This document shows positions 41,063-63,954 of a stretch of 64,000 bases of DNA, in pieces; the first letter of the stretch is position 1, and each line of letters opens with the position of its first letter. The notes under the pieces are model-generated. The model ran no database searches. It was not told the DNA's origin and saw only the letters and a program-made list of their open reading frames with translations. The translations under genes and the position numbers were made by a program. Source of the DNA: a virus (lineage: Duplodnaviria; Caudoviricetes); the IMG/VR virus record IMGVR_UViG_2595698339_000001, positions 1 through 64,000 of that record, one strand, 5' to 3'.

Positions 41063-41244
41063 CCTCACTGAACTGAACTTCATCAAGATGGGTATTTGCT
41101 AGACAATCTATGGGACAACGCAAATACCCTGGTAGGACGTTTGACGTACAGGCAGCAAAGGTTAGCAACGTACCCGGTACCGCTGGTTTCGACTTAATCA
41201 CATGCTTGCGAGCTGCGTTTCGCTGTGCTTTAGTTCACTAAAGC
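41063..41244. promoter_or_regulatory. divergent control region with operator-like sites
   Basis: CCTCACTGAACTGAA 41063-41077; gggtatttgc/gcaaataccc 41090-41129; gctttagt-tc-actaaagc 41227-41244. Confidence 0.7.
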
Positions 41245-41373: not shown

Positions 41374-41507
41374 ACGAACTCCTCCGCCACGACGAAACGC
41401 CCACCTCCAAGTTCCTGGCCAACGCCTACTACGTGACCATGTTCAGCGCGGTCGGCATCGGCTCTCTTCTCCTCATCCTCGCAGTTCTCACCGGAAGGGC
41501 ATCATGA
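41370..41507 (+). CDS. small membrane protein
   Basis: Single TM; coupled at both ends. Confidence 0.65.
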   Translation: MNELLRHDETPTSKFLANAYYVTMFSAVGIGSLLLILAVLTGRAS

Positions 41508-42349
41508 CCACCGACATCTACGACCGCGACGGGAACCTCCTGCACGCCTCCAGGTTCGACGGCCTTCGCGCCGCAGTGGAAGACGCCGCCTCCCGGGGCA
41601 TTTCCCTGCAGTGGGCCGATCTCCGCGGAGCCGACCTGTCCCGCGCCTACCTCGCAGGTGTCAACCTGTCCCGCGCCAACCTGAATAACGCCAACCTGTC
41701 CCGAGCTCAGCTGCAAGACGCCAACCTCAATGGCGCCTGCTTAATCGGCGCTGACCTGACCTACGCGGGGGCGATCTCGGCCAGCCTTGTCGACGCCAAC
41801 CTCGTGCGCGCCAACCTGAGCAGTGCAACGCTCCAGTCAGCCAACCTGGCCTACGCCAGACTGTTCGGGGCCAACCTCTCCCGGGCCAACTTTGACGATG
41901 CCAACCTGGTCCACGCCAGCCTGATAGAGGCCAACGCCGCTAACGCCTCCTTCGAGGGTGTCAACCTCCGTCACGCCGAACTGGAGCGGATCAAGAACCT
42001 CAATCCGCACACGGCCGCCGAGCTGCTGGTCCCGCCCGCGGAAGGCGCCTTCACGGCCTGGAAGAAGGCCCAGCTCGGGAGCATCGTCAAGCTCACCATC
42101 CCCGCCCACGCGCAGCGCTCCAATGCCACCAGCCGCAAGTGCCGCGCATCGGAGGCGTACGTCGAAGCCATCTACGACGAATATGGCGCCCCCGTCTCGT
42201 CGGCGCGCAGCCTGCACGACCCGTACTTCATCTACCATGTCGGCGCGATTGTCACGCCTCGTGTCGAAGGCTTCGAGCCCGACCGCTGGCAGGAATGCGC
42301 CCCCGGCATCCACTTCTTCATCACCCGCAGCGAAGCAGAGGCATACTGA
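41504..42349 (+). CDS. pentapeptide repeat protein with C-terminal domain (KCRAS...ECAPGIHFF)
   Basis: Tandem A(D/N)Lxx repeats. Confidence 0.92.
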   Translation: MTTDIYDRDGNLLHASRFDGLRAAVEDAASRGISLQWADLRGADLSRAYLAGVNLSRANLNNANLSRAQLQDANLNGACLIGADLTYAGAISASLVDANLVRANLSSATLQSANLAYARLFGANLSRANFDDANLVHASLIEANAANASFEGVNLRHAELERIKNLNPHTAAELLVPPAEGAFTAWKKAQLGSIVKLTIPAHAQRSNATSRKCRASEAYVEAIYDEYGAPVSSARSLHDPYFIYHVGAIVTPRVEGFEPDRWQECAPGIHFFITRSEAEAY

Positions 42350-42350
42350 C

Positions 42351-42497
42351 ATGGACAAGGCCACCGTCATCGCCAAGCTCATGGACATCCAAGAGCTGTG
42401 CAACGAAGCCCTCACCACTGCCGACCACAACAACCCGTGGTCCACCGCCAAGCCCTTGGCCAACAAGATTCTCGGCATCATCAAGGCTCAGTCATGA
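42351..42497 (+). CDS. hypothetical protein (48 aa)
   Basis: GAGG RBS, coupled downstream. Confidence 0.6.
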   Translation: MDKATVIAKLMDIQELCNEALTTADHNNPWSTAKPLANKILGIIKAQS

Positions 42498-42772
42498 GCT
42501 TCACCAAAACCGACGACGACATCATCGCCGAATTGTCGGAGCAGTTCTTCCTCGAATGCCAGGGGGCGAAGTGCAACCGCGAAGCCGAATACCTTCTCTG
42601 GCGCCGCCACGGTAAACGTCAGTGTGGCGCCAAGGTCTACACCTGCAGCGCGTGCCTGCGCGACACCGAGAATCGCTGGATCATCCTGCTCAACTCCGGT
42701 GGCGGCTGCGAACGCTGCGCCGAACCGTTCGAGGGTCACCTCTCGGACAACCTGCGCTACATCAAGCTCTGA
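42494..42772 (+). CDS. zinc-binding protein
   Basis: Several CxxC pairs; ATGA coupling. Confidence 0.7.
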   Translation: MSFTKTDDDIIAELSEQFFLECQGAKCNREAEYLLWRRHGKRQCGAKVYTCSACLRDTENRWIILLNSGGGCERCAEPFEGHLSDNLRYIKL

Positions 42773-42802
42773 AAACAACTCAAAATTAGTTCCCGGAACG
42801 AC

Positions 42803-42854
42803 TGGACAACCCGGAGATAAGCGGGTAACTTTAGTCCAGTGAAGTTCAGTAAAG
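42803..42854 (+). promoter_or_regulatory. promoter TGGACA-17-TAACTT with operator-like site at the start point
   Basis: Hexamers; CTTTACTGAACTTCA on the minus strand at 42840-42854. Confidence 0.55.
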
Positions 42855-43290
42855 CGGGGGAGATGCCTCGCACACGAGGACGAATCTCCATCACCCGAAT
42901 AGGGACTCACACAATCTTCTGACCGCATTCTGACGGTCAATCTAAAGCTCCAGGAAAGCTGGGCTTACTATCGCGGCGGCGAGAACGCAAACCTAGAGGA
43001 CAATCTTCAGCAGTAACTCCGCACTGGCTCTGAGCCGTTGAACGTGGCTACGACGAGTTGGGACGAGCTTCTTCGCGCTGTTGTTTTGTCTGAGCGTGTG
43101 GCATAAGGCCAGAGAAGACCTCTTACATCTTCTTCCGGGGACGTCATATCCCCGGCGCGCACAGTCCCTGAGAGCATATCCGCTCTATGTGGGATTACCA
43201 AGACCACCCTTGAGGTTGAGTCGTCATTGTCCATCACGGTCCCGCTCACATTGGGTTGAGCGTGGCTGAATGGCGACTCCCTCAAGGGTG
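42838..43290 (+). ncRNA. putative large structured RNA or 5' leader
   Basis: At least six stem-loops in a gene-free, lower-GC interval; G-U pairs favour the + strand. Confidence 0.5.
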
Positions 43291-43315
43291 AAAACACCAA
43301 CCAAGGAGGGTTTGA

Positions 43316-43621
43316 ATGCTGCTCGCACATTGCTCGGAAGACGAGAAGGTCCTACTGACCGCCTACCTCGCGCTAACCCCCGAGGGTCCTTCCCTCCTTG
43401 CCCCGAGGGACGCTGAGTCGACCCTGGCTTCGTACCTCGCCCTTCAGCCCGCCGATCAACCCCTCCAACACACCCCGCCGCCGCAGTACACCGCCGCCCT
43501 CGGTGAACTCGCACGCTCATTCCACCACCTGAGTCACCGCCGAAAGTTGAAGCAGGGCAGGGGATTTGCCTCCTTCCACGAGGTCCGCGCCCACCCCCGC
43601 TACGGCACCAGCGTCCGCTGA
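43316..43621 (+). CDS. hypothetical protein
   Basis: AAGGAGG RBS. Confidence 0.7.
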   Translation: MLLAHCSEDEKVLLTAYLALTPEGPSLLAPRDAESTLASYLALQPADQPLQHTPPPQYTAALGELARSFHHLSHRRKLKQGRGFASFHEVRAHPRYGTSVR

Positions 43622-44148: not shown

Positions 44149-44173
44149 CCCCACGGGCGCCCGTCCGGGCAAC

Positions 44174-44330
44174 TCACCCTCCTCGCCACAGGGTGTGGGA
44201 CGCGCGCGCCCAGCGTGGCTGGCTGGGGTCTTTCCTCCTTTCTACCCAGTCAGTCGCCACCCCATTAGAGACCCCCACCAAGGTTCCCTCCTTCCCTTGG
44301 TGGGGGTCTCTCCTTACTTCCCAAGGAGAT
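44174..44330 (+). ncRNA. putative multi-hairpin RNA with anti-SD (CCUCCUU) loops
   Basis: Perfect 17-bp stem 44267-44311 with loop ttccctccttc; second stem with loop containing ttcctccttt. Confidence 0.5.
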
Positions 44331-44336
44331 TCACCC

Positions 44337-44669
44337 ATGAAGAAAACCCTCATCGCCGCCGCGCTCGCGGCCGCCGCACTACTCACCCCGTCCTGCTCGC
44401 TGATGAGCCACCAGGTCTACACCGACTGCACCGTGCAGGCCAAGGACACCCTCCTCGACGGCAACGGCGACGGCGGCGTCACGCGCACCAAGCGCGTCAC
44501 CACCACCTGCGGCGCCTTCGACGTCGAGGACTCCCTCGCGGGCGGCTTCAACTCGTGGGACCTCTGGACCGCCCTGGAGGTGGGCAAGACCTACGACATC
44601 GAGACGGGCGGCCCCCGTGTCGGCTTCTTCTCCATGTTCCCCTACGTCACGAAGGTCACCGCGAAGTGA
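44337..44669 (+). CDS. secreted protein / lipoprotein
   Basis: MKKTLIAAALAAAALLTPSC signal peptide ending in Cys; AAGGAG RBS. Confidence 0.8.
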   Translation: MKKTLIAAALAAAALLTPSCSLMSHQVYTDCTVQAKDTLLDGNGDGGVTRTKRVTTTCGAFDVEDSLAGGFNSWDLWTALEVGKTYDIETGGPRVGFFSMFPYVTKVTAK

Positions 44670-50930: not shown

Positions 50931-52185
50931 GCAACCACCCCAGGACCTAGCCGCCGAGTCAGCAGTCCTCGGCGCCATGCTTCTCTCCAAGAACGCCACC
51001 CCGGCCGTCATGGAGATTCTCAAGCCCGAGGACTTCTACCGCCCCAACCACGCCACCGTCTACCAGATCATCACCGACCTCTACATGGCCGGTGAGTCCG
51101 CCGACGTCATCACCGTCGCCGCGGAGCTCGGCAAGCAAGGGATGCTGAACAAGATCGGAGCCCCCCAGCTCCTCGACATGCAGCAGAACGTGCCCTCCGC
51201 GCTCAACGCCACGACGTACGCCACCATCGTCAAGGACAAAGCCAGGCAGCGTCGCCTCATCGAACTGGGCGACCGCTGCCGCCAGCTCGGCTACACCGAC
51301 GCCACCACCTCCGAAGAGGTCGACGCGCTCATCGCCCAAGCTGGCCAGTTCCTCTCCGAGGTGGAGCAACCCACCGGCAACGGGCTCGGCTTCGCCCAGC
51401 TCGTAGAGAAGTGGCGGACCTGGCAAGACCAGCCCTCCGACGTCATCCCCACCCCATGGCCCGAACTCAACAGGTGGATTCCGGGCGGGGGATTCTCCCC
51501 GGGGAACCTGGTGGTCGTCGGCGGCCGCCCCGGCGCGGGCAAGAGTAACGCCGGTCTGAACATCATCTCCAAGGCCGCCGAAGACAAGCTCAAGAGCCTG
51601 GTCTTCTCCGTGGAGATGGACGACGTCGAAGTGTTCAGCCGACTCCTCGCGGCAGGCACCTGGTCCCCGCTCTCGCAGATCATCGGCCGCAGCATGGAGA
51701 ACTCCACGTGGGAGCGCGTCGAGGAATACCTCGACACCCACAAGGACCTCCCCCTGGAAATCCACGACGACGCCTCCCTGCGTGTCGAGGAAGTGGTCTC
51801 CCGCTGCCGGGTGCGCAAGCCCAAGGTGGTGATGGTCGACTACGCCCAGCTGATGGAGAACAGCAACCCCAAGTGGGACGAGCGCACCAACATTGCGCAC
51901 ATCTCCCGCAGCCTCAAGGTGGCGGCCAAGCAGCTGCACATGGTGGTGGTCCTGGCATCACAGCTCAACCGAGAAAACACGAAATCCACGGCCAAGAACG
52001 GCCCCGCCATCCCCGACCTGACCAACCTGGCCGGTGGCGACTCTCTGGGCCGCGACGCGGACGTTGTCCTCCTCCTCCAGAAGGCCGACGACAACATCAT
52101 CCGCATGCACGTGGAGAAGAACCGGAACGGACGCACAGGAATGATCGAACTAGTGGCCCGCGGCGCGATGTCGAGGGTCGGATGA
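50923..52185 (+). CDS. dnaB: DnaB-like replicative helicase
   Basis: AESAVLG, GRPGAGKS, FSVEM, VDYAQL, SQLNRE, KNRNG. Confidence 0.96.
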   Translation: MNEQPPQDLAAESAVLGAMLLSKNATPAVMEILKPEDFYRPNHATVYQIITDLYMAGESADVITVAAELGKQGMLNKIGAPQLLDMQQNVPSALNATTYATIVKDKARQRRLIELGDRCRQLGYTDATTSEEVDALIAQAGQFLSEVEQPTGNGLGFAQLVEKWRTWQDQPSDVIPTPWPELNRWIPGGGFSPGNLVVVGGRPGAGKSNAGLNIISKAAEDKLKSLVFSVEMDDVEVFSRLLAAGTWSPLSQIIGRSMENSTWERVEEYLDTHKDLPLEIHDDASLRVEEVVSRCRVRKPKVVMVDYAQLMENSNPKWDERTNIAHISRSLKVAAKQLHMVVVLASQLNRENTKSTAKNGPAIPDLTNLAGGDSLGRDADVVLLLQKADDNIIRMHVEKNRNGRTGMIELVARGAMSRVG

Positions 52186-63857: not shown

Positions 63858-63869
63858 ACGGGGCTCACA

Positions 63870-63949
63870 TGGCCCGTAGCTCAGTCAGGTAGAGCAGCCT
63901 TGCCCCTTGCGGGCTTGGTTCGTCCCCGGTTCAAATCCGGGCGGGCCTT
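63870..63949 (+). tRNA. atypical tRNA or tRNA-like RNA, identity ambiguous
   Basis: ggcccg/cgggcc acceptor, gctc/gagc D arm, cccgg-ttcaaat-ccggg T arm; enlarged anticodon arm. Confidence 0.7.
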
Positions 63950-63954
63950 GCCTC

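Follow-up and report, generated by a model that had tools for sequence, protein, structure and literature searches.

A gene-free gap of 543 bp in a mycobacteriophage genome probably specifies a structured non-coding RNA of about 450 nt. The gap occupies positions 42773-43315 of the window, the whole 64,000-nt stretch analysed here (positions 1 to 64,000 of IMG/VR record IMGVR_UViG_2595698339_000001). We favour, with moderate confidence, the reading that it is transcribed early from the + strand, is probably under repressor control and is related, through a hairpin module, to the early non-coding RNAs of Cluster A mycobacteriophages. An earlier note, made from the letters of the window, had suggested an unannotated large non-coding RNA or a cis-acting leader at this place. 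The RNA proposal is borne out in part: the region is non-coding, folds preferentially as the + strand and carries a core hairpin shared with Cluster A phages, which in phage L5, by the published transcript analysis, is transcribed; relatives were found, however, for only 38-45 nt of it.

A 701-nt query around the gap is 100% identical in many Mycobacterium phage records (Palpatine, Quink, Cjw1, Kostya, Porky and Pumpkin among others; genus Kostyavirus) and matched 236 records, 132 of them with at least 80% query coverage. Cjw1, 244, Kostya, Porky and Pumpkin are Cluster E phages in Pope et al. (2011, PMC3029335), and on sequence identity the window is assigned to a Cluster E mycobacteriophage. 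The gap, put at ~540 bp in the earlier note, begins after the stop of the gene at 42494-42772 and reaches the ATG at 43316. Annotated relatives show this region downstream of integrase and of the immunity repressor, which points leftward. Between the repressor and the gap stand four small genes that point rightward, one of them for a pentapeptide-repeat protein; beyond the gap comes the early arm, long and likewise rightward, which encodes a Cas4-family exonuclease and an ERF protein. The features referred to below, by position in the window, are these:

41074-82, no strand assigned: second palindrome copy TGAACTTCA, 16 nt upstream of the repressor start codon (41058, − strand).
42803-42831, + strand: candidate SigA-type promoter, with −35 TGGACA at 42803-08, a 17-nt spacer and −10 TAACTT at 42826-31; predicted start near 42838-42840.
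42838-42850, no strand assigned: operator-like imperfect 13-bp palindrome AGTGAAGTTCAGT, core TGAAGTTCA at 42840-48, at the predicted start; a putative binding site.
42839-42910, + strand: 5′ domain, a nested hairpin with basal stem 42839-47/42903-10, middle stem 42855-58/42894-97 and inner stems GGAGAT/ATCTCC and CCTCG/CGAGG.
42920-42966, + strand: two small hairpins, TGACCG/CGGTCA and AAGC-T-CCAG/CTGGGCTT.
43024-43068, + strand: conserved hairpin module, with helix P1 formed by CUGGCUC (43024-30) and GAGUUGG (43055-61), inner part 43031-43054 and trailing ACGAGC to 43068.
43081-43269, + strand: 62-aa open reading frame (ORF) with a TTG start, annotated as a hypothetical protein; judged not a gene.
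43094-43160, + strand: perfect four-way junction, closed by an outer stem of 5 bp and bearing three hairpins (stems 4, 7 and 7 bp); without a T-loop motif.
43163-43196, + strand: hairpin AGTCCC/GGGATT around AGAGC/GCTCT, outer stem 43163-68/43191-96; free energy (ΔG) −14.2, z −3.45 (0/200 shuffles).
43205-43290, + strand: 86-nt terminal hairpin of 11 bp, a 2-nt bulge, 11 bp and inner stems; helix 43205-28/43269-90.
43303-43318, + strand: Shine-Dalgarno sequence AAGGAGG and ATG of the next gene (43316-43621, matching phrog_2744), 13 nt past the terminal hairpin.

The connection with Cluster A runs through the core hairpin at 43024-43061. It folds on the + strand only (−10.3 versus −5.9 kcal/mol), and since three of the P1 pairs are G-U and would be A-C mismatches in the opposite strand, the helix can form only in + strand RNA. 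Its inner part is near-invariant and consists of a 7-nt loop, a bulged A and a 2-nt asymmetric loop. A blastn search at word size 11 found 243 records of 48-54 kb outside Cluster E that match window 43027-43068 and nothing else; overall some 243-271 Subcluster A1 records match the core, with 88-93% identity over 42 nt, and the trailing ACGAGC is common to the window and this subcluster. Among the matches listed, the A1 match strand is that of leftward early transcription. Bxb1, one of the phages matched, belongs to Subcluster A1 in PMC3029335.

A covariance model built from the window and ten A1 loci (R1), searched against 69 kb, found the right end of L5 with 26.1 bits (E 1e-6), the next best match reaching 12.2 bits. 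The L5 core lies on the leftward strand at record positions 51,148-51,196 (849-897 of our extracted locus L031), and the same model matches Adzzy with 32.8 bits and EagleEye with 32.5 bits. The orientation of the core relative to early transcription is the same in the Cluster E, A1 and L5 contexts.

The core hairpin is homologous and covaries across clusters. Six sequences, those of the window, L5, EagleEye, Adzzy and two A1 variants, were aligned over 34 nt without gaps (Bxb1 was omitted as an extra C shifts its register, and the remaining A1 loci repeat the two used); 98.6% of 72 cells are paired, against 83.8% in shuffles (0/500). Compensatory changes occur at 4/5 pairs of P1, giving a covariation score of 0.444 versus 0.148 (0/500), and controls in which the alignment was slid pair at 10-46%. 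Hardly any change is seen in the loops or in the seven inner pairs, the loop reading U-[U/A]-G-[A/C]-A-C-G. A helix free in sequence around an interior fixed in sequence is read as an RNA presented to a sequence-specific partner. Covariation, which the earlier note had proposed as a check, is thus present in P1 across six sequences, while the relatives on which it can be seen are confined to ~38-45 nt.

The core motif appears, at the stringency used, to be confined to these phages and absent from host genomes. The motif TGAGCCGTNGNACGTGGCTA occurs on 19 viral contigs, all of 51-55 kb; in 185,579 species genomes this looser 20-mer had two matches, both in unrelated metagenome-assembled genomes and below a rough chance estimate, and a 24-mer had none in genome contigs. 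Among metagenome contigs the core motif matched three times, once on a Cluster-A-like contig of 52.9 kb. The other two, on near-identical contigs (L023 and L024) in which a 21-nt core word is followed by GCTGGCA and whose ORFs do not look phage-like, were set aside as probably chance matches.

The L5 relative is part of a transcript that is already known. In Dedrick et al. (2017, PMC5712189), transcription from Pleft starts at 51,672 and runs to 51,140-51,190, where ~90% of transcripts end. RNA-seq and Northern blots document the resulting RNA of ~500 nt, which exceeds every other phage transcript in abundance; processing turns it into smaller species (100-400 nt), and no canonical terminator is evident at its 3′ end. 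The same article describes the region as toxic to the host, and reports that deletions of 51,195-51,619 and 51,195-51,407 could not be purified, whereas 51,407-51,619 was deletable. Set on these coordinates, the core hairpin lies at the 3′ boundary of the Pleft RNA; it adjoins the undeletable segment and falls outside both attempted deletions.

At this boundary we also found a tRNA-like element. Thirteen further Cluster A right ends (L032-L044; L034 is D29) were taken from 125 records matching the L5 element (L031). They share a cloverleaf whose acceptor-like stem is GGGUAG/CUACCC; its arms are a D-like one, into which a hairpin is inserted, a variable one and a T arm, the loop of which is UUCGAUU. 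In L5 this fold spans record positions 51,133-51,226 (L031:834-927, − strand), at the 3′ end of the Pleft RNA as mapped in PMC5712189. Over 11 sequences (EvilGenius, Larenn and Turbido, here near-duplicates of MS619 and Serenity, were omitted) 99.2% of 243 cells pair, compared with 85.7% in shuffles (0/500), with nine compensatory pairs, in 37 cells; slid controls pair at 38-55%. In this count MAFFT misaligns the D-like stem of EagleEye, whose cells become gaps, and shifts the Adzzy acceptor by one column, which accounts for the two unpaired cells. The Rfam tRNA-Sec model gives the L5 element only 22 bits (E 0.23).

The slot of the anticodon arm, the variable arm of this fold, is filled in two ways. 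L5, EagleEye and Adzzy carry the core hairpin there (26-33 bits), and 11 others, D29 included, carry a different, GC-rich hairpin; none of these 11 loci has a strong R1 match, the best, 13 bits in Larenn, lying at another place. Around the core of the window there is no T arm or acceptor stem, so that the scaffold of the Cluster A element is absent there. The term 'tRNA-like' occurs nowhere in PMC5712189 (its supplementary files lay outside coverage) or in the D29 preprint 10.1101/2025.11.21.689395, and literature searches, with subscription journals outside coverage, returned no tRNA-like fold in the Pleft RNA and no hairpin shared between clusters. Two further observations concern these right ends. 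The L5 gene 88-89 intergenic region (L031:128-214, − strand) gives weak matches to tRNA-Sec (19.5 bits, E 1.1) and mascRNA (17.2 bits). The word CTGAGCTTTGG stands three times around the L5 tRNA-like element (L031, − strand, ~816-951), twice in hairpin loops, and is also the loop of the alternative arm of D29; CTGAGC begins the core and recurs at window 43090.

In Subcluster A1 the core belongs to a cassette of ~240 nt, left unannotated in most records, which is bounded by two stoperator-like sites, the first of them overlapped by a −35/−10 pair (Bxb1 'gene 79', L003:1340-1620; L004-L018). These two repressor sites we take to be stoperators. The description of stoperators in PMC5712189 is consistent with them. 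The cassette promoter exists in two sequence variants, both of which keep the −35 and −10 hexamers. In the 3′ part of the cassette an acceptor-like stem and a T arm, the latter with the loop UUCGAUU, make up a mini tRNA-like domain, and the variant L005 shows compensatory changes in the acceptor and in three middle-arm pairs; the Rfam mascRNA model matches the cassette weakly (E 0.89). In Bxb1 the core module belongs to the right arm, ~3.3 kb away from the right-hand end of the record. The genes downstream differ between phages, and the cassette therefore behaves as a separate module. Literature searches (subscription journals again outside coverage) found no description of a stoperator-flanked non-coding cassette in A1, and proteins beside the gap and beside the Bxb1 cassette have no similarity.

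The A1 cassette is the closest sequence relative of the window core, with the ACGAGC tail and a 7-bp P1 in both. Like the gap, it is an RNA-sized non-coding unit with promoter-like −35 and −10 elements by a repressor site and the ribosome-binding site of the next gene directly behind. The two differ in length (~240 versus ~450 nt), in the mini tRNA-like domain that follows the A1 core, and in their flanks, which are unrelated. The gap also resembles the Pleft RNA of Cluster A2 phages (L5, D29 and StarStuff in PMC5712189) in being ~450-540 nt long, non-coding and at the head of the early operon behind an early promoter under repressor control, which for the window is a prediction. The window and L5 have a hairpin of 34-38 nt in common, with no detectable similarity outside it. 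In L5 this hairpin is placed inside a tRNA-like cloverleaf with a canonical T-loop, at the 3′ boundary mapped in that article, whereas in the window it lies ~190 nt from the predicted start, away from the 3′ end; D29 and ten other Cluster A right ends have a different hairpin in the slot.

Folding against shuffled controls, another check named in the earlier note, came out in favour of the + strand. The whole 453 nt reach −177 kcal/mol, with z −4.0 on + (0/100 shuffles) and z −2.8 on − (1/100). Four elements carry this result. The 5′ domain has ΔG −26.4, with z −3.47 on + (0/200 shuffles) and z −1.11 on −; the four-way junction has ΔG −27.6 and z −3.18 (1/200 shuffles), and no relatives of it were found; the hairpin at 43163-43196 has the values listed above; and the terminal hairpin has ΔG −49.4 and z −6.8 on +, with ΔG −42.5 and z −6.5 on −. 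All stems listed in the earlier note have a pairing probability >0.9 in the partition function, and they and both repeated motifs lie where it had placed them: GGAGAT/ATCTCC at 42859-64/42884-89 enclosing CCTCG-CACA-CGAGG at 42866-79, TGACCG/CGGTCA at 42920-25/42934-39, AAGCTCCAG/CTGGGCTT at 42945-53/42959-66, and CCGGGGA/TCCCCGG at 43135-41/43149-55. Its phrase that the gap is tiled by stems is thus right as a description, with shuffles supporting the four elements named and not the middle third. The recurring motifs ACAATCTTC and CATATCC, present as it had located them, are at chance level: the repeated 9-mer was equalled or exceeded in 35% of shuffles and the repeated 7-mer count in 8%.

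No known RNA family was recognized. Rfam returned nothing at gathering score over the whole window, and for 42700-43400 at E ≤5 a single chance-level MIR169 match (E 0.67). ARAGORN called only the tRNA-Arg at 63869-63952 in the window, leaving the gap without a tRNA or transfer-messenger RNA (tmRNA) at its 85% threshold; four scattered calls at the 70% threshold, none of them at the core hairpin, were regarded as noise. A frame resembling a tmRNA tag (GCA at 42987 to TAA at 43014-16) was dropped because SirDuracell has a 1-nt insertion inside it.

Inverted repeats such as these might instead work as double-stranded DNA, in a replication origin, a recombination or packaging site, or an array of protein-binding sites. 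We consider this improbable. A DNA element would accord with the GC content, which falls to ~0.53-0.57 in the gap from 0.60-0.69 in its flanks, with a terminal inverted repeat and a four-way junction nearly as stable on the − strand, and with a palindrome common to the repressor region. It would not account for a core that folds on + only, with P1 held by three G-U pairs, or for covariation that keeps P1 paired, which is a signature of RNA; the L5 homologue is moreover transcribed according to the published transcript data, and the gap contains no iterons and no repeat family of at least three copies, its short repeats being at chance level.

For the preferred reading, an RNA made from the + strand, the 5′ end of the gap offers a candidate promoter and a putative operator. 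Both hexamers and the 17-nt spacer proposed in the earlier note are present, one base to the left of the positions that it implied, and TGGACA-17-TAACTT has no other exact copy in the 64-kb window. The 9-bp palindrome TGAASTTCA occurs exactly twice in the 64 kb (at 42840 and 41074; expected 0.21, two copies being reached in 2/100 shuffles), each time in an intergenic region flanking the repressor, a protein identified by its match to phrog_2745 (E 6e-102). Two copies fit two repressor sites that would bracket the four-gene block beside the repressor. Repressor control, as the earlier note had it, agrees with a palindrome common to the start site and the repressor-proximal region, and the repressor probably shuts the gap promoter through the start-site palindrome, binding being predicted from the letters. 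The repressor-proximal intergenic region also contains, at window 41090-41129 and adjoining the first TGAACTTCA palindrome, a 10-bp inverted repeat, GGGTATTTGC and GCAAATACCC separated by 20 nt.

The gap encodes no protein. The 62-aa ORF has a GC content at third codon positions (GC3) of 0.49 and scores −0.99 bits per codon, and the 107-aa ORF at 43007-43330 on the − strand has GC3 0.60 and −0.41 bits per codon, compared with GC3 0.64-0.86 and +0.10 to +0.70 bits per codon in six neighbouring genes. That one or both are small genes has existing annotation in its favour, as the 62-aa ORF is annotated in 39 of the 60 Cluster E records listed (it is absent from the annotation of the other 21) and defines phrog_4633. 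This family, its sole match, is 62 positions long, the same length as the ORF, and is therefore taken as built from these annotations, which makes the match circular. The ORF starts with TTG, no Shine-Dalgarno sequence was noticed before it, and it has no Pfam match at threshold. In Cookies it measures 180 bp instead of 189 bp and has an altered C-terminus, because of a 1-nt insertion; the one-base insertions tolerated in Cookies and SirDuracell argue against the small ORFs. We regard a coding function as very improbable, and these results suggest that many Cluster E records carry a spurious 62-aa gene annotation. The earlier statement that the gap has no credible ORF is upheld by codon score and GC3, with the qualification that 39 of the 60 records listed do annotate one.

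A different objection is that the gap might be largely functionless spacer, its core a short fragment gained from a Cluster A phage through illegitimate recombination and its stems incidental. In favour of this, the core is all that is common to Cluster A, the middle region is not unusually structured, and Cluster E differs too little for purifying selection to show. The gap is present in 132/132 Cluster E records at 98.5-100% identity. We compared four variants, SirDuracell, Glexan, Cookies and Saints25, chosen among the 12 records that fall short of 99% identity and a handful slightly over it. Across the 543 nt of the gap 10 sites vary, and its central 389 nt have 3 variable sites, as against 96/2498 in pooled flanking genes (p 8e-4). 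Within 42838-43300, 5/5 substitutions fall at positions unpaired in the minimum free energy fold, where 37% of positions are unpaired (chance ~0.007 if independent, the five substitutions coming from only two lineages). Four lie in the 5′ domain, and the fifth, A-to-G at 43127 in Saints25, is in a junction loop. The Cookies 1-nt insertion is in the apical loop of the terminal hairpin and that of SirDuracell in a weakly predicted helix. Retention of the gap in every record, substitutions that avoid paired positions, four separate elements that beat shuffles at z −3.2 or lower and a core with the same orientation to early transcription in all three contexts weigh against a functionless spacer, which we hold to be improbable.

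Several results weigh against the preferred reading of one large structured RNA. Only ~38-45 nt of the 450 have detectable relatives, and for the remainder that description thus rests on thermodynamics; outside the core, the comparisons of E with A1 and of E with L5 were no better than shuffles (402/500 and 72/500, and 65/300 in a second test with L5). The middle part, 42998-43093, folds no better than shuffles (z −0.1), and z lies between +0.3 and +2.0 in the 150-nt windows whose starts fall at 42900-43000 (+0.3 at 42900). The core hairpin taken alone is not unusually stable (z −0.85), and its covariation comes from six sequences with the register set by eye, related sequences being able to beat shuffles without structure. 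The two adjoining genes have 0/279 and 3/306 variable sites, so the scarcity of variation belongs to the whole block and does not count as a sign of selection on the gap. The candidate promoter matches the consensus at 5/6 and 3/6 positions and the promoter scan gave 0 sites. The Cluster E element does not have the tRNA-like scaffold of its L5 counterpart, and its mechanism may therefore differ. A search of the full-text literature, subscription journals again excepted, found no Cluster E transcriptome, and a search of sequencing runs listed none of RNA.

In the main rival reading the gap would be a purely cis-acting leader of the early operon, a put-like antitermination element or an attenuator at the terminal hairpin, with no free-standing RNA. 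The HK022 put element consists of two stem-loops, ~70 nt in all, which act in cis on RNA polymerase. It is likewise a structured RNA just downstream of an early phage promoter and ahead of a long operon; Rfam searches gave no put match, and whether Rfam holds a put family was not confirmed. A leader would suit a gap directly upstream of a long + strand gene run and a terminal hairpin that ends 13 nt before the next ribosome-binding site, and in PMC5712189 the L5 transcript level drops by ~90% past the homologous region. The terminal hairpin, however, has no U-tract (the next letters are GAAAACACCAACC), and the terminator scan calls none in 42773-43315. The A1 module stands in a self-contained cassette with varying downstream genes, which fits a module acting on its own, and the L5 RNA accumulates, in the same article, as stable species of ~100-500 nt. 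We therefore consider a pure leader unlikely, although it is a less remote prospect than the DNA-level, coding and spacer readings, each of which we hold to be improbable.

Under the preferred reading of a free-standing RNA, the terminal hairpin at 43205-43290 is a candidate 3′-end protecting or processing structure. Phage T7 has RNase III processing hairpins between its early genes. The terminal hairpin is similarly a long bulged intergenic duplex of at least 22 bp, without a U-tract and ahead of a ribosome-binding site; it has no sequence relation to the T7 hairpins and is known from its predicted fold. In Cluster A the end may be made otherwise. At the 3′ end of MALAT1, mascRNA is a tRNA-like element for processing and stability, and the Cluster A relatives likewise have a tRNA mimic at the point at which a stable RNA acquires its 3′ end in the absence of a terminator. 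By this analogy, cleavage by RNase P or RNase Z may be inferred for the Cluster A relatives. The mascRNA family (RF01684) matches weakly, and on Cluster A loci only; the window has no tRNA-like match in ARAGORN or, to E 5, in Rfam.

Some features of the neighbourhood were noted in passing. The early operon, which had been described as coupled wall to wall, is not fully so, since its arm holds a second non-coding gap of ~190 bp at 44149-44337. A terminator-like site lies in this gap at 44209-27, followed by an inverted repeat whose 17-bp arms (44267-83 and 44295-311) match perfectly, and its 150-nt windows reach z −4.8 to −5.3 on +. The stretch 42350-42500, inside genes, is more stably folded than its shuffled versions, whichever strand is taken (z −2.5 to −4.2, 150-nt windows). 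A search for more distant relatives by way of the neighbouring gene at 43316-43621 gave none in genome contigs and, in viral contigs, matches of only 16-22 residues. The gene at 41504-42349 encodes a pentapeptide-repeat protein with a C-terminal DUF5758 and directly adjoins the immunity repressor, a position that suggests expression from the prophage.

Brought together, these observations point to the following course of events. The RNA would be transcribed early in lytic growth from the promoter at 42803-42831, which in lysogens the immunity repressor would switch off at the start-site palindrome. From 5′ to 3′ it would comprise a stable hairpin domain, a loose middle in which the 38-nt module sits, the four-way junction followed by the small hairpin and, last, the 86-nt hairpin. 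The first and last of these would protect the ends of the RNA. The 86-nt hairpin probably does so or defines the 3′ end; alternatively, processing there may release the RNA from the early mRNA that follows, and either passage of the polymerase through it or cleavage there would yield the mRNA for 43316 onward. The 38-nt hairpin would be the functional core, its invariant interior probably binding a factor in infected Mycobacterium smegmatis, presumably the same one as in Cluster A phages.

More tentatively, the core hairpin could be a portable RNA module swapped between Clusters A and E on different carriers: in L5-type phages it would sit on a tRNA mimic, in A1 on a cassette that includes a mini tRNA mimic, and in Cluster E on a 450-nt RNA that is not tRNA-like. 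We regard this as possible and well short of established. Early in infection the module would then capture or divert one and the same host factor, such as a defence nuclease or a component of the machinery for tRNA processing or RNA decay, and the Cluster E RNA would be lytic-essential and host-toxic, as in L5.

Abundant early non-coding RNAs were already known in Cluster A; a second, unrelated cluster can now be added with a candidate RNA of this kind. The hairpin common to the two clusters, with its invariant interior and covarying outer helix, offers a precise target for experiment, and the covariation-supported tRNA-like fold at the 3′ boundary of the L5 RNA makes end processing of the tRNA type in these phages directly testable.

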